A stretch of 64,000 nt of DNA from an uncultured Actinomycetota bacterium (GTDB taxonomy: Bacteria; Actinomycetota; Acidimicrobiia; Acidimicrobiales; Microtrichaceae). Below, piece by piece: positions 1,797 through 58,776 of this stretch. How positions within the stretch are numbered: position 1 is the first letter of the stretch; the number at the start of each line of letters is the position of its first letter. Location of the stretch: contig CAVZCC010000001.1 of the NCBI GenBank assembly GCA_963773765.1, forward strand, positions 18,901-82,900, read 5' to 3'. A program made the position numbers and the translations under genes. The notes beneath the pieces were generated by a model. It was given only the letters and a program-made list of their open reading frames with translations, did not search any database and had not been told where the DNA came from.

Positions 1797-3545
1797 GTGA
1801 CAGGGGGATGTTGCACCATGCCGACGCCAGAGTCGTTGACCACCAGCGAGCACCACGACTTCGACCTCGAGCTCGTGTCGGGAACGTGGCCGACCGACAT
1901 CTCGGGAGAGATGCTGTTCTCCGCGCCCAGCCTGAGCGGCAGGCTTCCCTACGGCATCTTCGACTTCGGCTGCGTCATCCGGCTCTCCCTCACCCCGGGC
2001 ACCCACGGCGCTCCCGACGGCCGGTTCGCCTGGCGCACGGGCCGGATCGAGACCCCGAGCAAGCGGATCTTCGACGCGGCACCCGACGCCTTCACGACGA
2101 GCCCGGTCGGCTACACCTCGCCCTTCGGGGCCCCCAACTCGTCGAACACGGCGCCGCTGCCCTGGGGGGACCGGCTGTTCACCACCTGGGATGCCGGGCG
2201 CCCGGTGGAGATCCACCCCGGCACGCTGGAGTACGTGGCCGAGGTCGGCCACATCGACAGCTGGGGCGGGTCGTCGATGTTCGGCGACACGGTCCTGCCG
2301 TTCCTCTTCTCCTCCGCCCACCCGGTGGTCGATCCCGAGCGCCACGGCCTGTGGACCACCAAGCTGGAACCGGTCATGTCGCCGACGTTCGGCATGCGGC
2401 CGTCGGTGGTGTGGTGGGACCGGTCCGGCACGGAGGTGAAGTGGTGGCCGCTGGAGGGGGTCTCCTTCCCCGGCTCCACCCACACCGTCAGCCAGACCCG
2501 CGACTGGGTCATCCTGTGCGACTCCGGCAACTTCAAGGCGGACGCGGACGAGATGTTCGGCGGGGAGCGCACGGTCACCATCGACGCCGACGTGCCGGTG
2601 TGGCTGGTGCGCAAGGACGACCTCTTCGCCCGCCCGTCGGGCACACCCGTCCAGCCCACCTGCTTCCGGGTGTCACCGCCCAACGGCCACTTCTATGCCC
2701 GCTACGACGACAGCGACGGGATCTCGGTGGTCTGGGAGGGCATGGACCTCATGGACCTGGCGCTCTACCTGCGCCCCGACGACGTCGACGTCCACGGCCG
2801 TCCGGTCGACCCGGCGTCGGTCGGGCTCTACAACATGGCGATGGCCCCGGAGACCATCACCGAGCTCCTGTTCGAGCCCGAGACCGGCAAGGTGATCGAA
2901 CGTGGGGCGTGCCGGGAGGACTGGACGGTCAACCTGCAGCTCTCCGCCATGGACTGGAGCCTGGAGGGCATGTCCGCACCCACCCTCCACCACGTGAGCT
3001 ACCAGGGCTGCCGCCCCGGGCGCGTCACGCAACGGGCGGCCCGGCTCTACGAGGACCGCATCGACCTGTCCGCGCTGGCCGAGGAGACGCCGGGGTACCT
3101 CGCCTCCTTCGAGCGGGGCAGCATGGAACTGACGGCCCGCTGGGAGTACCCGGACACCTCCGAGCTGATCACCTCGCCGACCTTCGCCCCCCGCAGCCCG
3201 GCGGCGGGCAACTACGCCGGTGGCGAACCCGGCGGCCACGACGGCTACGTGGTCCAGCCCGTGCTGAGCGACGACGGGTTCCGGGTGGACCTCTTCGACG
3301 CCGCCCACGTCGGGTCGGGGCCGGTCGCGACCCTCCGTGGCACCAACAAGGAGTGCGTGCCGCTGGTGCTGCACTCGGCGTGGATGCCGACCGCCGACGG
3401 ACTGGCGGACGCGGACCGCCTGCGGTTCTCCGACGAGCTCACCCCCGACCGCCTGGCCGGCCTGGACGACCACCAGCGCCGGCTGGTGGCCCGGGTGGCC
3501 GAGGACCTCGATGCCGGGCGTCCTCCTCCAACGGCTCCGGCCTGA
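1797..3545 (+). CDS. distant carotenoid oxygenase (CCD/RPE65)-like family protein, apparently intact (582 aa; alternative start at 1818)
   Basis: Long ORF with balanced composition; SAHPVVDPERHGLW resembles the CCD AHPKVDPxTGEL motif, plus an HT..Q..DWVILCD element similar to the HDFAITE region. Assignment is by motif only. Confidence 0.5.
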   Translation: MTGGCCTMPTPESLTTSEHHDFDLELVSGTWPTDISGEMLFSAPSLSGRLPYGIFDFGCVIRLSLTPGTHGAPDGRFAWRTGRIETPSKRIFDAAPDAFTTSPVGYTSPFGAPNSSNTAPLPWGDRLFTTWDAGRPVEIHPGTLEYVAEVGHIDSWGGSSMFGDTVLPFLFSSAHPVVDPERHGLWTTKLEPVMSPTFGMRPSVVWWDRSGTEVKWWPLEGVSFPGSTHTVSQTRDWVILCDSGNFKADADEMFGGERTVTIDADVPVWLVRKDDLFARPSGTPVQPTCFRVSPPNGHFYARYDDSDGISVVWEGMDLMDLALYLRPDDVDVHGRPVDPASVGLYNMAMAPETITELLFEPETGKVIERGACREDWTVNLQLSAMDWSLEGMSAPTLHHVSYQGCRPGRVTQRAARLYEDRIDLSALAEETPGYLASFERGSMELTARWEYPDTSELITSPTFAPRSPAAGNYAGGEPGGHDGYVVQPVLSDDGFRVDLFDAAHVGSGPVATLRGTNKECVPLVLHSAWMPTADGLADADRLRFSDELTPDRLAGLDDHQRRLVARVAEDLDAGRPPPTAPA

Positions 3546-3644
3546 CGCCCGGGCCGGGGCCACGACCTCCTGATCTCCGTGGCCGCCCGGCGCTACGGTG
3601 CACCTGACGCGCACACGCTGCCCAGCCGACCCCCGGGAGCCACC

Positions 3645-4265
3645 ATGTCCGACGACCAGAGCCCGACCCCTTCCGCCGATACCCCGGCCCAGGCCGAGGA
3701 CGACGTCGTCGCCGGCGTGGTCACCGACGGTGCCTACACCCTGTTCGTGGCGGACTTCGCCGATCCGGACACCGCCTGGGAGGCCTACGAGTCGCTGAAG
3801 TCGGTGGAGGACGGCACGACGGTGTCCATCGAGGGCGTCCTGGTGGTCAAGGCCGGTGCCGACGGCGTGATCGAGGTCCAGAAGGTCACCGACCATTCCA
3901 CCCGGTCCGGCCTGAAGTGGGGTGTGGTCGGCGGTGTGGTCCTGGGCGTGCTGTTCCCGCCGTCGATCATCGGCAGCGCCCTGGCGGTCGGCGCCGCGGG
4001 CGCCGCCGTCGGCAAGGCCCGCGAGGTGCACCACCGTTCCGAACTGGCCAAGGACCTGGAGGGTGCCATCGCCCCCGGGCACTCCGGCATCCTGGCCCTG
4101 GTCTCCGACCCCGGCGCGGTGGAGATCCGCAAGGCCCTGGACAAGGCCGACGCCATCGTGGAGCGGGCGGTGGACAAGGTGGCGGCGGAGGACATCAAGG
4201 CTGCGGCCAAGGAGGCCGAGGAGGACGACGCCGCTCCGGACGGAGGCAGCGCCACGGCCGGCTGA
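3645..4265 (+). CDS. DUF1269-type membrane protein (Gly-rich transmembrane segment, acidic C-terminus)
   Basis: ORF 3579-4265 read from internal Met MSDDQSP; hydrophobic GVVGGVVLGVLFPPSIIGSALAVGAAGAAVG segment; family call from memory. Confidence 0.5.
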   Translation: MSDDQSPTPSADTPAQAEDDVVAGVVTDGAYTLFVADFADPDTAWEAYESLKSVEDGTTVSIEGVLVVKAGADGVIEVQKVTDHSTRSGLKWGVVGGVVLGVLFPPSIIGSALAVGAAGAAVGKAREVHHRSELAKDLEGAIAPGHSGILALVSDPGAVEIRKALDKADAIVERAVDKVAAEDIKAAAKEAEEDDAAPDGGSATAG

Positions 4266-4268
4266 CCC

Positions 4269-4318
4269 GGCGGCCCGGGACGTGAGCCGCCGTCAGGCCG
4301 GCCCGGGGCCGGCCAGCT
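4269..4318. terminator. two GC-rich hairpins (cggcggc-N11-gccgccg; ggccggccc/gggccggcc) between convergent DUF1269 and MmyB-like genes
   Basis: Inverted repeats seen directly in sequence; no U-tract. Confidence 0.25.
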
Positions 4319-5137
4319 GGCGGCAGACACCTGCGGTCAGGTCGTCGTAGGGGAACCAGGTCTCGATGCGCAGGTGCTCGACCGCGACGTTCTGCGGCGC
4401 CTGGAACGCCGTGACCATGGTCAGGAAGCGCAGTTCGAGGCCGTCCCGGCGCAGGTGCAGGACCAGGGCCGGGTCCGACGGCACCAGGAGGTCGACGTGG
4501 CGCCAGCCCGGGTCGACGGTCGGCATGGCCAGGAGCTCGTCGAGCAGGTCGCGCATCTCTCCGTCGTCGGGGTCCTCGAGGACCTCGCGCTGGATCCGCC
4601 AGAGCAGCTGGCGGCCGACCTGGTCGAAGTTCGCCAGGAACGGCTGGGCCCCGTCGGGGTCGAACGTCAGGCGGGCGAGGTTCAGGCCGATGACCCCACC
4701 GCCGTCCGGGCCGTCGGGCGGTCCGCGGCGGCACCCCCCAGGATGGTGCCGAGCAGGCCGAGCGCCCCCTGGTTGAGGTCCCGGACCCGGTAGGTCCGGT
4801 CCAGGACGATGAGGGGGAAGGGCTCCTGGTGGACCTTCAGCAGGGCCAGGGCGTCCGTCACCGTGTCCGGCAGGGCGTCGTCGGATTCGTCGTAGACGGG
4901 CTCGTGGCCGGCGGCCCGGAGCATCGCGTTGACCTGCCGCAGGGGGACGCCGAGCGACGTGGACAGCTGCAGCACCATCTCCGGGCTCGGACGGGAGCGG
5001 CCCGTCTCCAGGAAGCTCACGTGCCGGGCGGAGACGTCTGCGGCCAACGCGAGGTCCAGCTGGCTCAACCCGCGCTGGCGGCGCCAGTGCCGGAGCAGCG
5101 CCGGGAACAGCCCGGCGCGGTGGTCGGGATCGGGCAC
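4293..5137 (-). CDS. MmyB-like helix-turn-helix (XRE) transcriptional regulator; frameshift near 4690
   Basis: ORF 4682-5137 carries the HTH (LSQLDLALAADVSARHVSFLETGRSRPS). C-terminal MmyB-like domain (LRFLTMVTAFQAPQNVAVEHLRIETWFPYDD) continues in ORF 4293-5177 in another frame. Confidence 0.55.
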
Positions 5138-5310
5138 CCGGGCCTCCTGGATACGTGGGGTGGACGGCGTCCGTCACCCACGACGCTAAGCGTTCGTGCG
5201 GCCGGCGGCACTTACCTCCCCAGTTCGTTGCGGTGCCCGCGATCCGGGCGCAAGGTGGCCCCCAACCCCGGGCGGACCCGCGCCGGGGACCACCACTCCC
5301 GGAGGTTCCG

Positions 5311-6193
5311 ATGCCGACACTGACCCCGGCCGCCGCCGCCGACCTGTTCCGCCGACCGCCCGACCGCTTCCTCGACGTCGGTGCCGGGGAGGTCGCCTAC
5401 CGTCGGGTCGGGGACGGGCCCGGACGTGCTGTTCGTCCACGGCTGGCCGGTCAGCGGAGCGACGTTCCGGACCCTGCTTCCCCACCTGGTGGACCACGTC
5501 ACCTGCCACCTGATCGACCTCCCGGGGGCCGGCTCCAGCCGCTTCACCGCGGCCACGACCCTGTCGGTCGACCAGCACATCCAGAGCGTGCGGCGGGTCC
5601 TGGACCTGCTGGAGCTGGACCGGGTCGCCGTGGTCGGACACGACAGCGGCGGGATGATCGCCCGCCACGCCGTCGCCGGCGACCCACGCCTGGGTGCCAT
5701 GGGCCTGGTCAACACCGAGCAGTCACACGGCCTGAGCCGGCGGTTCAAGGCGTTCCTCGCTGCACGCCACCTGCCGGGCCTGGGCGCCGGCCTCGGCTGG
5801 GTGGCGGGCCAGCGGCGCGTCCGCCGCATCCCGTTCGTCCTGGGCGACGCGTTCGCCGACCCGTCCCTGCTCGACGGCGAGTTCGACGAGTTCTTCCTCC
5901 GGCCCCTGCACGAGCTGCCGGATCGTCGCGACGCCGCCGTCCGTGTGCTGCGCAGCTTCGACGAGCGGTTCGTGCGGGACCTGGCCGGCCTGCACCGGCG
6001 CATCACGGTCCCGGTCCAGCTCGTCTGGGGCGACCAGGATCCGTTCTTCCCGCTGGCGTGGGCCCAGGAGATGGTGGGGACGTTCCCGGATGCCCGACTG
6101 GAGGTCGTCGCGGGCGCCGGCCTGTTCTCGCACGAGGAGCGTCCGGCCGAGGTGGCCCAGGCCCTGCTCCCGACCCTCACCGGGACGCGCTGA
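5311..6193 (+). CDS. alpha/beta hydrolase fold protein; frameshift near 5420
   Basis: MPTLTPAAAADLFRRPPDRFLDVGAGEVAYRRVGDGPG in ORF 5155 frame, continuing as VLFVHGWPVSGATFRTLL...VGHDSGGMIARHAV (nucleophile elbow) in ORF 5381-6193. Confidence 0.55.
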
Positions 6194-18341: not shown

Positions 18342-19535
18342 TCAGCTCCAGCGCCGCTGCGCGGCGCGTGACCGGTCGGCGAGCTGGCGGCGGCGCGCCT
18401 CCGGCGTGATGGCCGGGTGGTCATGGGGGAGCCGGGCCCGCAGGTCCGGGACCGGGACCATCGTCGCCGTGGGCTGGGGCCTGGTGGCGGCCCCCACGTA
18501 GCGGTACACGGCCATGCCGATGGGTCGGCCCTCGGTGTCCAGCCAGTTGGGGACGCCCGGGTCGACATGGGAGATGACGATGCGCACCCGGCCGTCGCCG
18601 TCCACATGGGCCTGCCGGCCGTTGCAGCTCATGAGGCGCTGGTCCCAGTCCCCGGAGTCGAACCAGTGCAGGTTGTGGATCGACCAGTTCCAGTACCGGG
18701 CGTCCGGTTCGTCGTGCTCGACCAGCAGTGCCTGGCCCTCCGGTAGGTCCCAGCACCCGCCGCCGTAGGCGATGCTCGGGGCGCCGCCGGGCGGGGTGGT
18801 CGGAGGGGTGAACGTGTTGTGGGCCAGCAGGTCCCGGGTGGCGGCCACGTAGGCGGCCCAGAAGTCGATGGACCGGTCCACCCACCGCCCGGCCCGGTCC
18901 AGCGCCCCGGCGACGCCGTCGGGCGTGGGCGGCGCCGCGGGCTCGCCCGAGGTGTCGGTGCGCTCGATGCTGAACGACACCACCGGTTCCCGGTCCCAGT
19001 CGTACAGGTACTGGCGGATGAGCAGCATCCTGACCCCGGCGGCGGACCGCAGGTGGTTCCCGGGCCGGTCACCGGGGCCGATGGACAGCTCGAGGGTGCC
19101 GTCGCCGTCCACGGCCAGGTCGCTCAGGGCCACCTCTGCGTACACGTCGTTCTGGTCCAGGTGCATGTCGCCCTGGACCAGGGAGAACAGGGCCTCGTGC
19201 GCGCCGTGGACCCGACCCCGCAGCACGTAGGTGGCGTCGGGGTCGATGGCGCAGCGTTGGTACACGTTGTCCGGGTTGGGTGCGCCCCACTGCGACCACG
19301 GAAGTTCGTAGCGGTGCAGGCGCGGGTGGAGGGGGTCCGCGTGCTCCAGTTCACCCTGCAACGCCAGGCCGGCCTGCCGGGCCAGGTGGCGGATCCCCTC
19401 GGCCCGGCCCCGGTCGTCGGTGGGGAAGTGGTCCTCGGTGAGGCGGGTCGACAACCCCTCCAGGGTGGCGGTCCAGCGGGCCCAGGCCTCGCCGGCGGGA
19501 TCAGCGCCTGAACCGGGGGTGGGTGCCGATGGCAT
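18342..19535 (-). CDS. DUF1214/DUF1254-type protein, intact
   Basis: 397-aa ORF; ...RYWNWSIHNLHWFDSGDWDQRLMSCNGRQAHVDGDGRVRIVISHVDPGVPNWLDTEG... typical of that family (from memory). Confidence 0.5.
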   Translation of the reverse strand: MPSAPTPGSGADPAGEAWARWTATLEGLSTRLTEDHFPTDDRGRAEGIRHLARQAGLALQGELEHADPLHPRLHRYELPWSQWGAPNPDNVYQRCAIDPDATYVLRGRVHGAHEALFSLVQGDMHLDQNDVYAEVALSDLAVDGDGTLELSIGPGDRPGNHLRSAAGVRMLLIRQYLYDWDREPVVSFSIERTDTSGEPAAPPTPDGVAGALDRAGRWVDRSIDFWAAYVAATRDLLAHNTFTPPTTPPGGAPSIAYGGGCWDLPEGQALLVEHDEPDARYWNWSIHNLHWFDSGDWDQRLMSCNGRQAHVDGDGRVRIVISHVDPGVPNWLDTEGRPIGMAVYRYVGAATRPQPTATMVPVPDLRARLPHDHPAITPEARRRQLADRSRAAQRRWS

Positions 19536-23308: not shown

Positions 23309-23707
23309 TCAGGTGGTGCTGACGATGAGCACCGAGCAGCCGGCCTTGTGCGAGATGGTGTTGGTGACGCTGCCCAACACCCGGCCCTTGCCCTTCATCC
23401 CCTTGTTGCCGACCACGATCAGGTCGGCGTCGACCGAGTCGGCCACACCGAGGATGGCGTCGGCGGCGTCGCCGGGGACGGCGTGGCGGTGCAGCACACC
23501 GCCGAAGCCCGCGCCGAGGGAGGCCAGGAACTCCTCGGCCTCCCGCGTGGCCGGCTGCGTCTCCGGGTGCGCCCGGTCCCGGTAGGGGTCGAACGCCAGC
23601 ACCAGGTGCACCTCGGCGCCGACGGTGCCCGCCAGCTCCATGGCCTGGTCGATGGCGATCCGGGCCGCCTCGGTGCCGGCTGCGCCGACCACGATCCTGT
23701 CGTACAT
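23309..23707 (-). CDS. universal stress protein (UspA family)
   Basis: MYDRIVVGAAGTEAARIAIDQA...LIVVGNKGMKGKGRVLGSVTNTISHKAGCSVLIV. Confidence 0.75.
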   Translation of the reverse strand: MYDRIVVGAAGTEAARIAIDQAMELAGTVGAEVHLVLAFDPYRDRAHPETQPATREAEEFLASLGAGFGGVLHRHAVPGDAADAILGVADSVDADLIVVGNKGMKGKGRVLGSVTNTISHKAGCSVLIVSTT

Positions 23708-40147: not shown

Positions 40148-40747
40148 TCAGGCGTCGGTGGCGGCGTCGATGCGCTTGCCGACGCCGCGCACCTGGAACG
40201 CCATCACGATCTCGGTGATGCCGCGGAACAGGGCGAAGAACCCGACCCAGATGAGGATCAGCGCGGCGCGCGCGGGGTAGTACTGCTGCGAGGCCCAGAA
40301 GCCGAGCATCAGCTCCAGGATGCCCACGACCAGTCCGAGCCACCAGATCTCGTTGGTGTGGCGGTCCAGGACGGCGCCGACGATCTGGAAGGTTCCGGCC
40401 AGGACCAGGATGAGCCCCAGCACCGACGCCAGTGCCCAGAACGCGTCCTGCGGGTTGATCCAGCAGTACAGGGCCGCTGCCAGCAACAGGACGCCGAAGA
40501 TCAGGTTGAGCCAGCGCCACCCGCTCCGGAGCAGGCTGAACACCAGGAGCTCGTTGACGGCGGCCATGGCGAACACCACGCCCAGGATCACACCCACGGT
40601 GCCGATCGACGTGGAGGTGAACCGCAGCACCACCAGTGCCACCAGCAGCCAGATGATCCCGGTGACCAGGAACAACCACCAGAGTCTGGTGGCCTCCCGG
40701 AAGGCCCGGGCGTCGACGATCACATCGGTCTCTTCGGTCATGGTCAT
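40148..40747 (-). CDS. HdeD/DUF308 family membrane protein
   Basis: 199-aa ORF, six hydrophobic helices; family call from memory. Confidence 0.5.
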   Translation of the reverse strand: MTMTEETDVIVDARAFREATRLWWLFLVTGIIWLLVALVVLRFTSTSIGTVGVILGVVFAMAAVNELLVFSLLRSGWRWLNLIFGVLLLAAALYCWINPQDAFWALASVLGLILVLAGTFQIVGAVLDRHTNEIWWLGLVVGILELMLGFWASQQYYPARAALILIWVGFFALFRGITEIVMAFQVRGVGKRIDAATDA

Positions 40748-40833
40748 GGGGACCCTCCTGACAGGCGGTGGCTGACTGCCGTGCAGTCAGACCCCCTCGG
40801 TGGGCGGCACGTTACCGACGGCCGGTGACGGGG

Positions 40834-42255
40834 TCAGGGATCCACGTGCTCCAGGCGGAGCGTGGTGTCCACCAGCAGGCGGAACCGGCCCCGGCCGGCC
40901 TTCTGCAGGCGGATGGGGGCTTCGCGCTCGTCGAGCCGGCGCCGGAGCAGGATCAGGCGGCTCTCCAGGTTGTCCCGGTACTCGGGGAGCTCCAGGGACG
41001 GGTCGAGCCGGACCTCCCTGTTGGTGAAGTCCACCCGGCCCTCCGCGTCGAACTGGCAGAGGAGGGACCAGAGGATCCGTCCGGCGACGCCCTTGATCAG
41101 GTAGTCGCCGTCCAGGAACGTGCTGCCGTCGGCGGGGAAGAAGCGGACCTGCGTCACCGATCCGGGAGCGGCCAGCGAGAGCGGCCGGGCGGGCGACGCG
41201 GCCTCTCGGGGCAGCGGCGCGGCCTCGCTCGGCCTCCACGGCGGCCCCGACGAGCGCAGCCACCACCCCCAGCGTCGTTTCGTCACGGTGACTGAACGCC
41301 ACCGGCCGGTCGCGTTCTGCGAACAACACCCCGACCACCTGCCCGAACGCGACCGCCGGCACCGCCACCTGGCTCCCGGCATCGGCCAGGCCCGGCAGGG
41401 CGATCACGCCGGTGACCTCCACGCCGGCATCGGCGGACCGGCGCTGCACGGTGCGGGAGTACTTGTCCATCTGGCGGATGTTGCCGACCCGCACGACGGT
41501 GCCCCGCTCCGCGGCCAGGCCGATCACCCCCATCCCCACCTCGACCTCGGACCCGATCCCCCCGTCCGGGTAGCCGTGGGCCGCCACGGTGTACAGGCTG
41601 GTGCCGGACTCGTCGGCGAGGAGCAGCAGGCTGTGCTCGTAGCCGAGGAGCTCCGCCAGCCCGTCGACGGCCAGCCCCACGAGTTGGTCCAGGTCGGCGC
41701 TCCGGGCCAGTCGGCCCGCCAGCTCGGCCACGGCGGCGACGCGGTCGGTGCCCGGGCGGTCGGTGCCCGGGCGGACGGCGCCGGGGGGGACGTCGGCGCC
41801 AGCGGTACCGGGCGGGTTCGCGGCGGCGCCACCACCCACCACACGTTCCAGGGACACGACGCGGTAGATGTCGGCGGCGCGCAGCCGGAAGACGTCCTCC
41901 ATACCGGACAACGCGGCCAGGGTGTCCACGTCGGTCCTCAGGCGCTCGAAGACCGGGCCGCGTCGTTCCGTGCGCTCGTAGGCCAGGGCCAGCCGGTACT
42001 CGTCGTAGGTGACGGGGTCGATCAGGAGCAGGTTGGCCCGCGGGTTCTCCGCCAGGTTCCGGGCGGTCTTGGAGAAGAACTGGTTGGACAGCGCCACCCG
42101 GTGGTCGTCCACCATGCGCACGCGCGACAGGTAGGTGACGTTGGGCGTCCCCCCGGCGGAGGACGTGGCGACCACCGCCGGCACCGCCCCCTCGAAGCAC
42201 TGGTGGATGTCCGCCAGCCGGAGGCCCGAGGGGTCCGGCCCGTCGTCGGTCACGC
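40834..42255 (-). CDS. one-component regulator: PNPOx-like (FMN/F420 split-barrel) domain + GAF domain + OmpR/SARP-type winged-helix DNA-binding domain; frame change near 41190; GTG start
   Basis: From GTG at about 42255: LRLADIHQCFEGAVPAVVATSSAGGTPNVTYLSRVRMVDDHRVALSNQFF (PNPOx-like), ...LLLADESGTSLYTVAAHGYPDGGIGSEVEVGMGVIGLAAERGTVVRVGNIRQ (GAF-like) (ORF 40787-42625 frame), then FFPADGSTFLDGDYLIKGVAGRILWSLLCQFDAEGRVDFTNREVRLD...SRLILLRRRLDE...IRLQKAGRGRFRLLV (trans_reg_C-like) in ORF 40834-41382 frame. Confidence 0.5.
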
Positions 42256-42618
42256 CGAGCCTCCGTCCGGCCCCACCGGCGCACCCGCTCCCGGGCCCGG
42301 CGTCTGGTCGAAGAGCTCCTCCATCTGGACCGTCACGGCCGTGAGGCCGGCCGGCACCAGCTTCTCCAGGAGGTCCACGGGGAACCCGTCGACCTCGTGG
42401 ATGGCGTCGAACATGGCCCGGCGGTAGCGGCCGGACACCCTGGCGTCCTCCGCCGTGGCCGGCTCCGTCCGGAGCACCCGGCCCTTGGCCTGCACCGACT
42501 GCAGGGTCCTGATGTCGGTCGCCGTGCAGGCGATGGGAGCTCCCGGCAGCACGGCACCGTCCAGGACGGGGTCCCCGGCGGGGACCAGGAGGCGGATGCG
42601 CCCGTCGTCGGAGGACAT
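42250..42618 (-). CDS. small PNPOx-like (pyridoxamine 5-prime-phosphate oxidase family) protein
   Basis: MSSDDGRIRLLVPAGDPVLDGAVLPGAPIACTATDIRTLQSVQAKGRVLRTEPATAEDARVSGRY...; its TGA overlaps the GTG of the downstream regulator (GTGA). Confidence 0.55.
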   Translation of the reverse strand: MSSDDGRIRLLVPAGDPVLDGAVLPGAPIACTATDIRTLQSVQAKGRVLRTEPATAEDARVSGRYRRAMFDAIHEVDGFPVDLLEKLVPAGLTAVTVQMEELFDQTPGPGAGAPVGPDGGSA

Positions 42619-42874
42619 CGTGCACCCCCAGCCGCGGCCCGCGTACGGCTCGCCGTCCGGCCCCGTGATCCCCACCAGCAGGGCGGACCCGCTCCTCAGG
42701 AGGTGCTGCGTTTGCGGACCGAGCTCCACCCCGTGCTCCCGTTGCCGACTTCGGAAGTTCTTAGCATTCGCTGCGGGGCCTTTGAGGAGCGGGGCGGACC
42801 GAACCGTCCGACGATGGCGAACGACCACGACGACGGCGGGCCGACAGCCGGACCCGCCCCACGGAAGGACCGAC

Positions 42875-43636
42875 ATGACCGACATCACGCTCCCCGCCGA
42901 AGCCTCCGACGTCGCCCCCGACGTCGCCGCACTGACCATCACCGGGATGCGCTCCCGGCCGGAGTTCGGCCTGGTCGCGGTGGACCTGTACCGGGACATC
43001 CACAAGGGCATCCGGGCCGAGCTGTTCTCCGTGACCGGTGAGAGCGGCTCGGTCGACCCCGGCGACCGGCTGGGACGGGCGGCCCTGGCCGCCCACGTCC
43101 GGGACGTCGTCGGACTCCTGGCCGACCACGCCGACCACGAGGACGCCCACATCCAGCCCGTCCTCGAACGCCACCTGCCCGAGCTGGCCGGGACCATCGG
43201 GACCGACCACGCCCGCCTGGAGGAACGGACCGGTTCGTTGGTGGAGGTCGCAGGACTGGTGGAGGCGGCCCGGCCTGCCGACCAGCGGGCGCTGGTGCAC
43301 CACCTGTACCGGGAGCTGGCCTCGTTCACCGGCGACTACCTGCGCCACCAGGACGTGGAGGAACGCGTGGTCATGCCCGCGCTGGAGTCCGCCGTCGGGG
43401 TGGAGGCCGTGCTGGGGATCCACCAGGCCATCGTCGGCTCGATCCCGCCGGAGCAGATGGCCGCCTCGCTCGCGGTCATGCTGCCGGCCATGAACCTGGA
43501 GGACCGGACCGACCTGTTGGGCGGCATGCAGGCCGGTGCACCGCCCGAGGTCTTCGCCGGGGTGTGGGGGCTGGCGGGCTCCGTGCTGGACCCGGCCGAC
43601 CTCCGGGCGCTCGGTCGCCGCCTGGGCCTGGACTGA
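42875..43636 (+). CDS. hemerythrin-like metal-binding domain protein
   Basis: MTDITLP...DLYRDIHKGIRAELF...DHEDAHIQPVLERHLPEL...; the preceding part of ORF 42455-43636 looks non-coding. Confidence 0.5.
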   Translation: MTDITLPAEASDVAPDVAALTITGMRSRPEFGLVAVDLYRDIHKGIRAELFSVTGESGSVDPGDRLGRAALAAHVRDVVGLLADHADHEDAHIQPVLERHLPELAGTIGTDHARLEERTGSLVEVAGLVEAARPADQRALVHHLYRELASFTGDYLRHQDVEERVVMPALESAVGVEAVLGIHQAIVGSIPPEQMAASLAVMLPAMNLEDRTDLLGGMQAGAPPEVFAGVWGLAGSVLDPADLRALGRRLGLD

Positions 43637-43733: not shown

Positions 43734-45686
43734 GTGAGCGAGGCCAGCGGACAGGCGGGCGTGGAGCCCATCACGGATGACGACGCGACGATCGCGGCCG
43801 CCCTGGCGGACGTGAGCATCCCGACGCTCCTCCTGTCGTTGGTCCACATGACCGGTGACATCGCCATCCTGGACGAGCTGCCGCGGCCGGCGGGGATCTA
43901 CCTCAACGAGGTGCAGGGCTTCATGTCCCCGGAGGACCAGGCCGCCGTGCGGGCCCGGGCGCTGGAGGTCATCACCGCCTACCGCGACGGCGGCTGCGTG
44001 CTCCCGCCCCCGCCCGACGCCGGACGACGGTCCACCGCGATGATGAACGTGCTGGTGGCCGACGAGGTCCCCGACGAGTACGTGCCGCTGCTCCTCGAGG
44101 AGCTGGAGCTCGACGGCGTGGACGCCCGGGACGGCGACTGGGGCGCCGCCATCCCCGACGACGTGCGGGCCGGCGCCCACGTGGTGGTCATCGGCGGCGG
44201 GATGTCCGGGATCCTGGCCGGCATCCGCCTGCAGGCCGCGGGTCTCCCGTTCACCATCGTCGAGAAGAACCCGGGCGTGGGCGGCACCTGGTACGAGAAC
44301 CGCTACCCCGGCTGCCGGGTGGACGTGGGCAACCACTTCTACTGCTACTCGTTCGCGCCCAACGACGAGTGGACCGAGTTCTTCGCCCGCCAGCCCGAGC
44401 TGCAGGCCTACTTCGAACAGGTGCGTCACCGACTTCGGCGTCGGCGACCACCTCCGGTGCTCGCACGGAGGTCGTCGCCGCCCGCTGGGACGACGACCGT
44501 GCCCGTTGGACGGTGACCGTCCGCGGCGCCGACGGCGTCCAGCGAGGACCTGGAGGCCAACGCGGTCATCAGCGCGGTGGGCCAGCTGAACCGGCCCAGG
44601 CTGCCCGACATCGCCGGCCTGGAGGACTTCGGTGGCCCGGTCATGCACTCGGCCCGGTGGGTGGAGGGCACGGACCTGCGCGGGCAAGCGGGTGGCGGTG
44701 ATCGGCACCGGCGCCAGCGCCTTCCAGATCGTGCCCACCATCGCGGAGCGAGGTCGGCCACCTGACGGTGTTCCAGCGGTCCGCGCCGTGGATGTTCCCC
44801 AACCCGCACTACCACGACAAGGTGGCACCGGGCGTGCGCTGGGCGCTTCGCCACCTGCCGTACTACGGCCGGTGGTACCGGTTCCTGATCTTCTGGCCGG
44901 CGTGCGACGGCGGGCTGCCGGCCATGCGGGTCGACCCCGACTGGCCCCACCAGGACCGGGCCGTCAGCGAGGTGAACGACGCGGCCGCGGGAGGTCTTCA
45001 CCCAGTGGATGGCCGACCAGGTCGGCGACGACGCCGAGCTCCTGGCCAAGGTGGTGCCCGACTACGTGTGCCTGGGCAAGCGCACCCTGCAGGACAACGG
45101 CAGCTGGCTGGGTGCCCTCACCCGCGACGACGTGGACCTCGTCACCGAACCGATCGAACGCATCGGGTCCGACCGGATCGTGTGCACCGACGGGACCGAG
45201 GTCCCGGTGGACGTGATCATCTGCGCCACCGGGTTCCACGCCAACCGCTACCTGTGGCCGATGGAGATCACCGGCCGGGGAGGCGTGGTGCTGTCCGAGC
45301 AGTGGGGCGACCGGCCCACGGCGCTGCTGGGGATCACGGTGCCGAACTTCCCCAACCTGTTCTGCCTCTACGGGCCGGGGACCAACCTGGCCAGCGGGGG
45401 CAGCCTGATCTTCCACTCCGAGTGCCAGGTCCGGTACGTGATGGGGTGCCTGGCCCGCGTGCTCGGGGGCGGGCACCGCGCCATCGAGGTCACCGCCGAG
45501 GCGCACGACGCCTACAACGAGCGCCTGCAGGCCGAGTTGGCCACCATGGTGTGGTCGCACCCGTCCATCCGGAACAGCTGGTACCGCAACGACGACGGGG
45601 ACATCTACATCCTGTCGCCGTGGCGCCTGGTGGACTACTGGCGCTGGACCCGGGCGCCGGAGCCGGACGACTTCATCCTCACGTGA
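43734..45686 (+). pseudogene. class B flavin monooxygenase paralog 3 (FMO/BVMO-like with N-terminal extension), 5 or more frame changes
   Basis: GTG-start VSEASGQAG...HVVVIGGGMSGILAGIRL...GGTWYENRYPGCRVDVGNHFYCYSF...YFEQV (43536 frame); TEVVAARWDDDRARWTVTVRGADG (44369 frame); GQLNRPRLPDIAGLEDFGGPVMHSARW (44577 frame); GKRVAVIGTGASAFQIVPTIAER (44632 frame); FQRSAPWMFPNPHYHDKVAPGVRW (44768 frame); ADQVGDDAELLAKVVPDYVCLGKR...NFPNLFCLYGPGTN (45009 frame). Confidence 0.6.
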
Positions 45687-51461: not shown

Positions 51462-51737
51462 TCATGGGGTGCCGGAGCGGGTGTCGGAGCGGGAGCGGAT
51501 CATCTCGACCCAGTACTCGTCGGGCGGGCCCACGAAGGTGATGGCCGACTGGGGACACACCGACGCTCCCAGCCAGGCCGCCTCGGCCAGCTCGGCCGGC
51601 ACCTCCAGCAGGTGGAGGTCGACGCAACCGTCCTCGTCCAGGTCGTAGACGGCGGGCGCGAACCGGTGGCACAGGCCCCATCCCTGGCACAGCGACGGAT
51701 GGACCTTGACCCGGACCGTCCCATCGGCGGCATCCAT
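51462..51737 (-). CDS. small ferredoxin (single-cluster, P450-type Fdx)
   Basis: MDAADGTVRVKVHPSLCQGWGLCHRFAPAVYDLDEDGCVDLHL...SVCP. Confidence 0.65.
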   Translation of the reverse strand: MDAADGTVRVKVHPSLCQGWGLCHRFAPAVYDLDEDGCVDLHLLEVPAELAEAAWLGASVCPQSAITFVGPPDEYWVEMIRSRSDTRSGTP

Positions 51738-52159
51738 CAGGCCGCTCCGGTGAGGGAGGCCAGCGAGGTGCGCGACATCTCGGCGGTGAGCTGGCCCCGG
51801 GCCCGGGACCACGGCACGTGCAGGGCGCACGTGCCGCCCCCGGCGCAGGTCCGTTCCTCCAGGACGCACCGACCCGTGTCGGTGGGTCCTTCCACCGCCT
51901 CGATGACCTGCAGCACGCTGAGGTCCGCCAGGTCCGCCACGACGACGTAGCCGCCCGTGGGGCCGGGCTCGGACCGGACCCATCCCCGGGCCAGCAGGGG
52001 TGACATGACCTGGGTCAGGAACCCCGCGGTGGTGCCCACGGAGCGGGCCAGGTCGGCGGCCTTGGCCCGCGGCGGCGGATCCGCCGTGCCGGCCCGGCGG
52101 TCCAGCTCCAGCAACGCCCGGGTGGCCAGGTCCGCCTTGCGGGTGATCTCAAGTCGCAT
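51737..52159 (-). CDS. Rrf2-family transcriptional regulator with three C-terminal Cys (NsrR/IscR-like Fe-S sensor)
   Basis: MRLEITRKADLATRALLEL...CVLEERTCAGGGTCALH; stop overlaps the ferredoxin start. Confidence 0.7.
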   Translation of the reverse strand: MRLEITRKADLATRALLELDRRAGTADPPPRAKAADLARSVGTTAGFLTQVMSPLLARGWVRSEPGPTGGYVVVADLADLSVLQVIEAVEGPTDTGRCVLEERTCAGGGTCALHVPWSRARGQLTAEMSRTSLASLTGAA

Positions 52160-57851: not shown

Positions 57852-58776
57852 ATGAGGTGGTGGTGCTCGGCGGTGGCGGAGAAGTGGACGTGGGCCCCGC
57901 GTCCGTACCTGGGCGTGTGGATCCTGTGCCTCGGGCTGGGCGCGGCGTACTGGCGGAGCTGGACCCACCACCGGGACCAGTGGGTCCCGGACGAGCGGGA
58001 CCGCCGCCGCCCGCTGTGGTTCGGGCTCGGCCTCCTGGCGCTCTGGGTCGCCTCCGACTGGCCCGTCGGTGCCCTGGGTGGGTCCTACCTGGCCTCGGTC
58101 CACATGCTGCAGTACATGATCTACACGCTCGCCGCGGCACCGCTGCTCATGCTCGGCACGCCGGAATGGCTCGGTCGACGCATCCTGGCCGCCACCTGGC
58201 TGCGCACCGTCTACCTGGCCATCTCCAAGCCGACTCATCGCCGCCCTCATCAGCAACTTCGTGCTGATCGCCACCCACGCCCCGGTCACGGTGGACCTGT
58301 TGCGCTCCAGCCAGTTGGGGTCGTTCCTCCTGGACATGATCTGGCTGGTGGCCGGCTTCATCCTGTGGACCCCGATCATCAGCCCGCTGCCGGAGGCCCA
58401 GGCCCGCTCCGCGCCGATCAAGCTGGTGTACCTGTTCGCAGCGGCCGCCCTCATGCCCATGATCCCCGGCGGGTTCCTCACCTTCTCGCCGCTGCCCCTG
58501 TACGCCACCTACGAGCTGGCACCCCGGGTCGGCATCGAGGCACTCGACGACCAGCAGATGGCAGGCGTGGCCATGAAGGTCGGCAACCTCCCGGTGATCT
58601 GGACCGTCATGGCGGTGATCTGGTTCCGCTGGTACCGCCGTGAGGCGGGCGACCAGCGGCCCACGGTGGTGCGCGACCCGGTCACCGGCGCGCCGTTGCG
58701 GGCACCACGGGCAGCGCGTCCAGCCCCCGGAACGGACCGCGCTGGTGCCAGCGCAGGGGTTCCGCCGTCCGGCTGA
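57852..58776 (+). CDS. ctaG: cytochrome c oxidase caa3-type assembly factor CtaG-like membrane protein; frameshift near 58235
   Basis: RPYLGVWILCLGLGAAYW...MLQYMIYTLAAAPLLMLGTPEWL...AISKP (57852 frame), then LIAALISNFVLIATHAPV...LWTPIISPLPEAQ... (58261 frame). Confidence 0.5.

Follow-up and report, generated by a model that had tools for sequence, protein, structure and literature searches.

The stretch of DNA analyzed here, referred to as the window, comprises 64,000 nucleotides (positions 18,901–82,900 of contig CAVZCC010000001.1, assembly GCA_963773765.1) from an uncultured Actinomycetota bacterium of the family Microtrichaceae, with a GC content of ~72%. Our subject is a pair of overlapping minus-strand genes, A followed by B, that span 42729 to 40834, together with the DNA separating them from a hemerythrin gene on the plus strand. 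Gene A (42250–42729, minus) encodes a stand-alone PNPOx-like split-barrel protein of 159 residues. Gene B is split as sequenced into two reading frames: the N-terminal frame (41214–42253, minus) encodes a PNPOx-like domain, a linker and a GAF domain, and the C-terminal frame (40834–41212, minus) encodes a linker and a 111-residue winged helix of the OmpR/PhoB type.

Gene A extends from a GTG at 42729 to a TGA at 42250 and is preceded by the Shine-Dalgarno sequence GGGAG. A preliminary description of this DNA had started the gene at the ATG at 42618, which proved to be internal: the 5′ extension codes for conserved residues, including LLVGITGPDGEPYAGRGWG. Because the resulting length of 159 residues agrees with that of P0121 (159 residues, 99% identical) and with the gene calls at four related loci, we place the start at GTG 42729, and the divergent spacer therefore occupies 42730–42874 (145 bp) rather than 42619–42874 as first proposed. 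The junction between the two genes is as the preliminary description had it. The minus strand reads GTGA, in which the TGA of gene A (42252–42250) and the GTG of gene B (42253–42251) share a 4-nt overlap that is also found in relatives; the two genes are translationally coupled, and a GGAGG lies 10 nt upstream of the gene B GTG. The product of gene A adopts the split-barrel fold, and its family is matched by PNPOx_N (PF01243) in 36 of 56 members (best E 3.3e-10) and carries an invariant, family-specific FDQTPGPGAG motif at the C-terminus. Near its end (42272–42274), gene A contains an extra GGG codon relative to the closely related metagenome contig L001. An Rfam match to mir-124 within the coding sequence (42480–42539, minus; 28.3 bits against a gathering score of 49) is regarded as chance; the Rfam scan of 40–44 kb returned sub-threshold chance matches alone (mir-124 and Bcj11), and an RNA element was accordingly rejected.

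Both domains that had been proposed for the N-terminal part of gene B score above the curated Pfam cut-offs. PNPOx_N matches residues 17–87 with 43.5 bits (cut-off 28.1; E 4.7e-11), GAF_2 matches residues 185–340 with 47.6 bits (cut-off 28.6; E 2.4e-12), and GAF scores 43.5 against 22.4. The PNPOx-like domain occupies ~41843–42226 and the GAF domain ~41234–41701. Pfam identifies no Response_reg (receiver, REC) domain, the N-terminus consisting of PNPOx plus GAF, and gene B is therefore not a two-component response regulator; neither a BTAD domain nor a transmembrane segment was detected. The nearest solved relatives of both barrels, that of A and that of the B N-domain, are HupZ, HutZ, MSMEG_3380 and flavin mononucleotide (FMN)-binding proteins. 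A profile of the B N-domain retrieves the FMN-binding protein 3in6 at 2.8e-7 and HupZ and HutZ at ~1e-3, which are weak hints to the cofactor. The Cys, His and Met positions retained in at least 50% of the B family are Cys19 (82%), a His at position 52 (79%; Arg in the clade of the window) and a His at position 202 within the GAF domain (76%), none of which falls within a recognised metal- or heme-ligand motif. In the low-complexity linker between the PNPOx-like and GAF domains, a 15-nt duplication at 41760–41774 adds a second PGTDR in frame relative to L001, and this linker evidently tolerates length change.

What separates the two frames of gene B is a single surplus base at 41213 (minus-strand T, plus-strand A), which falls between the GAF and DNA-binding domains. 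Alignment with L001 (99.0% identity across these 2.2 kb), in which base 41213 is absent, reads CGCGCCGC[T]GCCCCGAG on the minus strand, the T being the extra base. A frame change in the inter-domain linker had been reported before; it is indeed present in the sequence, in the linker from the GAF to the C-terminal domain, at 41213 and not near 41190. Removal of this base yields a protein of 472 residues, and with this repair the earlier estimate of ~470 residues holds. The repaired protein aligns end to end with intact P0001 (97% identical), from which it differs by a handful of substitutions and one five-residue indel, with only two changes, both conservative, in the 111 codons past the shift. 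Unrepaired, the frame runs beyond the GAF domain into a Pro/Arg-rich nonsense tail of 137 residues that ends at 40787, and the deposited run-on product P0005 (488 residues) is identical to this translation of the window.

Were the frameshift real, B would be a pseudogene or a split gene, its sensor half uncoupled from the winged helix and the hemerythrin and A promoters left unregulated. We consider this unlikely, while giving it some weight: the extra base is in the deposited assembly, from which P0005 was annotated, the insertion lies outside any homopolymer, and the neighboring FMO-like gene is likewise broken by many indels relative to L001, which could reflect local gene decay. Against this stand the four close relatives P0001–P0004, all of them intact, and the two conservative changes after the shift, which mean that inactivation would have to be very recent. 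Furthermore, the window and L001 are 98.8% identical over 13.4 kb and differ by 16 single-base indels, 13 of which are extra bases in the window, a pattern more like assembly error; eleven of the single-base indels fall in the FMO-like gene, which is intact in L001 (495 residues) and broken in the window. Programmed frameshifting was also rejected, as the relatives do not have the extra base and the sequence around 41213, read by eye, shows no slippery site. Because the domain downstream of the shift is undecayed, the relatives are intact and single-base indels are numerous in near-identical DNA, the frameshift at 41213 is most likely an assembly indel error. The monooxygenase gene itself (FMO/Baeyer-Villiger type; 44018–45205, plus, downstream of the hemerythrin gene) has some of its indels clustered as +1/+1/+1 within 20 nt; these indels reflect either poor local assembly quality or gene decay, and thus bear on the trust to be placed in the frameshift.

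The full-length B architecture returned at least 3265 matches, nearly all of ~450–475 residues and with 96–100% coverage, which group into 2764 clusters at 50% identity (425 of these at E≤1e-30). More than 3000 homologues, and the window gene once repaired, join sensor and DNA-binding domains in a single polypeptide, whereas the window as sequenced has them in different frames. Since the homologues are single proteins, the two halves of B are not separate genes in its relatives, as the preliminary description had supposed in treating them as one. The same description had called the architecture unusual. Full-text literature searches found no description of a PNPOx-GAF-winged-helix protein, but the arrangement is widespread rather than rare: the A–B module occurs in at least 595 species genomes from five or more phyla, with the closest carriers in Acidimicrobiia and others in many Betaproteobacteria and Gammaproteobacteria, Nitrospirota (including N. 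moscoviensis), Acidobacteriota, Chloroflexota and Myxococcota. Database names for these proteins are "GAF domain-containing protein", "PNPOx superfamily flavin-nucleotide-binding protein" and "adenylate cyclase". The last is common among JGI names, yet no cyclase domain is detected (Pfam finds PNPOx_N and GAF only), and the label is probably wrong, an annotation transferred through the GAF domain. Several shorter homologues (P0296, P0317, P0324, P0329, P0348 and others; ~300–320 residues) align from the GAF domain onward with N-termini that seem complete, which suggests, as far as the alignments go, a subfamily of PNPOx-less GAF plus winged-helix proteins.

The linkage between A and B was evaluated in a set of 84 related loci, which also underlies the neighborhood counts given below, with A homologues found by profile. 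At every one of them (84/84), the gene immediately upstream of B is an A homologue. In addition, natural A–B fusions of 629–660 residues occur in several lineages (P0056, P0242, P0255, P0256, P0273, P0281, P0304 and P0310, as well as L083 at 3419–5347), and the N-terminal part of these fusions ends in FDQTPGP. A 658-residue "A–B fusion" in Nitrospira moscoviensis was discarded: A and B are in different frames there, and the long open reading frame is a high-GC artefact. Together, the invariant linkage, the natural fusions and the 4-nt overlap argue for a stoichiometric A–B complex, as judged from gene organization.

The C-terminal domain of B (40837–41169, minus, followed by the TGA at 40834–40836) was modeled with AlphaFold2 from the family alignment, giving a predicted local distance difference test score (pLDDT) of 93.6 and a predicted template modeling score (pTM) of 0.87. 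The model comprises three β-strands, α1, a short β-strand, α2, α3, and a β-hairpin with a further strand. Structures named in the fold comparison were 8hml, AdeR, PrrA, DrrD, CadC, CpxR, VanR, ToxR, PhoP, AfsR and EmbR. The OmpR-family domains alone also align over the N-terminal β-sheet, extending over 85–96 residues, compared with 60–73 residues for generic winged helices (ScpB, MCM8, ESCRT). On the basis of this model, the C-terminal domain is assigned to the OmpR/PhoB-fold winged helices, by fold and not by sequence membership of Trans_reg_C. The predicted recognition helix, NLESRLILLRRRLDE, is encoded at 40927–40971 (minus) and bears invariant Arg and Asn residues; the residues invariant across the B family sit on this helix and on the predicted wing, which has a GRGRF motif. 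No other segment of B is as conserved as the winged helix, in keeping with an operator that is itself conserved between phyla.

These features bear on whether B is a transcription factor at all. A and B could instead work chiefly as a pair of enzymes, oxidoreductases or handlers of heme, that the GAF domain controls, with the winged helix serving protein–protein contacts. The nearest solved relatives of the barrels are enzymes and cofactor binders, as named above, and the C-terminal domain has no sequence-level match to Trans_reg_C, both of which would suit such a pair. However, the shared N-terminal β-sheet, aligned by OmpR-family domains only, the invariant Arg and Asn on the predicted recognition helix, the GRGRF in the predicted wing, and an operator-like array that travels with the module and has the 11-bp periodicity of OmpR/PhoB-family sites all speak against an enzyme pair, which we regard as very improbable.

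The divergent gene (42875–43636, plus) encodes a hemerythrin (HHE) domain protein of 253 residues (Pfam Hemerythrin, 7.1e-9), as the preliminary description had recognized, and is the predicted target of B. Compared with PDB sequences, it shows weak similarity to the hemerythrin domain of FBXL5 only. A gene for a hemerythrin-domain protein of 234–255 residues adjoins A–B at 47 of the 84 loci, divergent upstream in Acidimicrobiia, as in the window, and convergent downstream in many Proteobacteria. At loci without it, the neighbor is a cytochrome c (Thauera and others), a cupredoxin-like protein (Nitrospira), an FAD-linked oxidase (Chloroflexota; FAD, flavin adenine dinucleotide), or a DUF169, DUF4337 or E1 dehydrogenase gene.

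Binding-site prediction in the divergent spacer, which had been suggested as a check, revealed a 45-bp element at 42746–42790 (minus; nhmmer) that is built from four direct repeats spaced 11 bp apart, GCTCCTCAAAG GCCCCGCAGCG AATGCTAAGAA CTTCCGAAGTC G, and that we propose as the operator. Across loci the element measures ~45 bp, with the consensus GTTGCTAAATG nTnnCTnAGCG AAnGCTAAGAA TTTCCTAAnCG and an exact 11-bp spacing. In the window its unit 1 points toward the hemerythrin gene and its unit 4 ends ~16–18 nt before the start of gene A, and the element profile has no other match in the 64 kb (nhmmer E ~1e-6). At E<0.01, nhmmer gave 31 matches in the real sequences and 0 in a reversed-sequence control; chains of repeats numbered 18, against 0–4 in shuffles. 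Elements occur in two positions only: they separate the hemerythrin gene from A, or they lie just past the 5′ end of a convergent hemerythrin gene. Where detected, the operator is always on the 5′ side of the hemerythrin gene, with unit 1 facing that gene in every case.

Individual loci depart from the common layout in several ways. A locus from Polyangia (L058) has two operator copies, at 3405–3447 and 6124–6164, one separating the hemerythrin gene from A and the other located downstream of B, flanked by genes for cytochrome c and a DUF4337 protein. Two Thauera loci (L077, 2782–2824; L052, 1743–1785) have no hemerythrin gene; their A and B lie in one operon behind a c-type cytochrome gene, and the operator is inverted, unit 1 still facing the cytochrome-A-B operon. 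Beside the operator of a betaproteobacterial locus (L025, 7972–9069) lies a gene for a TetR-family protein fused to a metallo-β-lactamase domain of the ODP type, an oxygen-binding di-iron protein family; this fusion is possibly another gas-sensing regulator.

To relate the element to the module without protein information, all metagenome contigs were scanned for the pattern TTSCTAAAT-N15-SCTAAGAA-N4-CTA. The scan returned 58 loci, 38 of which carry B, A or a hemerythrin gene on the same, often short, contig. The 11-bp repeat array thus co-occurs with the module, and OmpR-type binding to it is predicted. It is nevertheless conceivable that the element is real but serves some factor other than B, for instance another regulator or an alternative sigma factor, while B acts elsewhere. 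Binding of the element by B rests on prediction, no module gene is on the contig in 20 of the 58 pattern matches, and the element adjoins varied genes (hemerythrin, cytochrome c, DUF169, DUF4337, E1 dehydrogenase), as might be expected if B were not its reader. But the module-negative matches are mostly on short contigs, near contig ends, or AT-rich chance matches (GC 0.30–0.34; at least two loci are of this last kind), four periodic direct repeats are unlike a sigma-factor promoter pattern, and in at least five phyla, with flanking genes that vary, B is the one DNA-binding protein constantly present in the neighborhood. We therefore judge a different reader of the element improbable.

The position of the element relative to the flanking genes suggests how B might act. 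Beyond unit 1, 9/9 proteobacterial loci inspected have a TAnnnT hexamer (TAGACT in five) at a distance of exactly 19 nt from the element, and Acidimicrobiia loci have (C/G)A(C/A)GAT at the same 19-nt spacing. In the window, the inferred −10-like hexamer of the hemerythrin gene is GACGAT (42810–42815, plus), again exactly 19 nt away from position 1 of the operator. Where a −35 box would be expected, inspection shows no evident consensus. A −10-like hexamer at this distance with no −35 is the geometry expected of an activator that takes the place of the −35 element. At the opposite end, since the element stops so close to the start of gene A, the A–B promoter must overlap it, and B probably autoregulates the A–B genes, to judge from this arrangement.

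We consider it probable that A and B constitute a one-component sensor–regulator of a kind not described before, which relies on a cofactor and activates the hemerythrin gene next to it. A and B would form a two-part cytoplasmic sensor–transcription factor, fused in some lineages into one protein. Because PNPOx-like proteins are normally dimers that hold their cofactor at the interface, we infer that the barrel of A pairs with the barrel of B. The pair would hold a flavin or heme, and its redox or ligand state (O2, nitric oxide (NO) or an oxidant) would be relayed through the GAF domain to the winged helix. Coenzyme F420 is unlikely as a general ligand, as the family extends into Proteobacteria and Nitrospirota, given the known distribution of F420. 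B would bind the repeat array head to tail, in the manner of OmpR-family proteins, and from there most likely activate the gene on the unit-1 side, which is the hemerythrin gene here and a cytochrome c or cupredoxin-like protein gene elsewhere.

Several results weigh against this interpretation. As sequenced, the window encodes no intact regulator, the sensor and DNA-binding halves being in different frames. The preliminary description had proposed a Trans_reg_C-like DNA-binding domain; its OmpR-type character is upheld by the fold comparison, but the C-terminal 111 residues of B match neither Trans_reg_C (PF00486) nor any other Pfam or NCBIfam profile at E≤1. Searches of PDB sequences with phmmer and with a 61-sequence profile of this domain returned haloalkane-dehalogenase noise only, and the C-terminal profile, when compared by hhalign with the C-terminal sequence of PhoB, gave no match. 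Similarly, gene A of the window itself has no Pfam match at E≤1 and no NCBIfam match, and hhalign relates A to the B N-domain with just E 3.9e-4 and a probability of 36%. The element was detected, at fixed positions, in only 37 of the 84 loci (nhmmer, E<0.1), and the copy in the window is degenerate, with the cores CCTCA, CCGCA, GCTAA and CCGAA. A scan of the spacer for a consensus sigma-70 promoter and for terminators found nothing. Finally, the recognition of DNA by B, its activating effect, the pairing of its barrel with that of A, and the kind of cofactor and signal are all putative.

Comparison with known systems shows where the proposed regulator is conventional and where it departs. In the OmpR/PhoB family, pho boxes are tandem 11-bp direct repeats that abut the −35 position, a periodicity typical of the sites of this family. 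The predicted target of B likewise consists of tandem 11-bp direct repeats abutting the −35 position, as for BaeR, AdeR, PhoB, PhoP and CpxR, although its array has four units where two are usual. B further differs from this family: it has no receiver, and its C-terminal domain shows detectable similarity in sequence neither to Trans_reg_C nor to PDB sequences. Another parallel is provided by one-component OmpR-type regulators (Thermus thermophilus DnrS, SARP/AfsR/EmbR and CadC/ToxR), which like B join a sensor directly with a winged helix of the OmpR fold. Beyond its GAF domain, DnrS is of the OmpR/BTAD type. Its N-terminal GAF domain is described as a likely redox/O2 sensor, and the protein as an O2-sensitive activator that controls respiratory genes (PMC6282519). 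By analogy, DnrS is a functional precedent for B. Compared with the DnrS, SARP and CadC types, B adds a PNPOx-like barrel and an obligatory second barrel protein, and has no detected BTAD or transmembrane segment.

The barrels and the GAF domain have parallels of their own. PNPOx-like split-barrel proteins bind FMN, FAD, F420 or heme at the dimer interface, and gene A and the B N-domain share a fold or sequence signature with the barrels of COG3576, HupZ, HutZ and FMN-binding proteins. The known members are stand-alone enzymes or cofactor binders and not sensor modules of transcription factors, and gene A adds to them its FDQTPGPGAG tail. For the GAF domain, analogies are found in NorR, a GAF–AAA+–HTH sensor of NO, and in the heme-GAF sensors DosS and DosT, where GAF is a gas- or redox-sensing module controlling genes for di-iron or heme proteins. 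Unlike these, B has a different output domain and possesses neither an AAA+ nor a kinase domain.

The wider neighborhood had been described as rich in redox sensing. An HdeD/DUF308 gene (40148–40747, minus) follows gene B, and elsewhere in the window are a Usp-family gene (23309–23707, minus), an Rrf2-family regulator gene that is an NsrR-like candidate (51737–52159, minus) and a Caa3_CtaG assembly factor gene (58261–58776, plus). The Usp and Rrf2 genes are thus present, but NsrR, USP and other nearby genes are at least 9 kb from the module, and the scan of the window found no copy of the 45-bp element near the Usp, Rrf2 and Caa3_CtaG genes.

More tentatively, A and B may define a new and widespread class of redox/O2/NO sensors, in which heteromeric PNPOx-like barrels with flavin or heme, a GAF domain and an unmodelled OmpR-fold subfamily act through a four-repeat 45-bp operator, found from Actinomycetota to Proteobacteria, and switch on genes of the hemerythrin, cytochrome c and cupredoxin type. 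The predicted operator and target make function, ligand and regulon testable in the culturable Nitrospira moscoviensis, Variovorax, Thauera and Ramlibacter. If the interpretation is correct, the module would introduce a divergent OmpR-fold DNA-binding domain that escapes current sequence profiles, provide bacterial hemerythrin-domain proteins with a dedicated regulator, and extend the known repertoire of bacterial signal transduction by a sensor–regulator family that is common yet unannotated.

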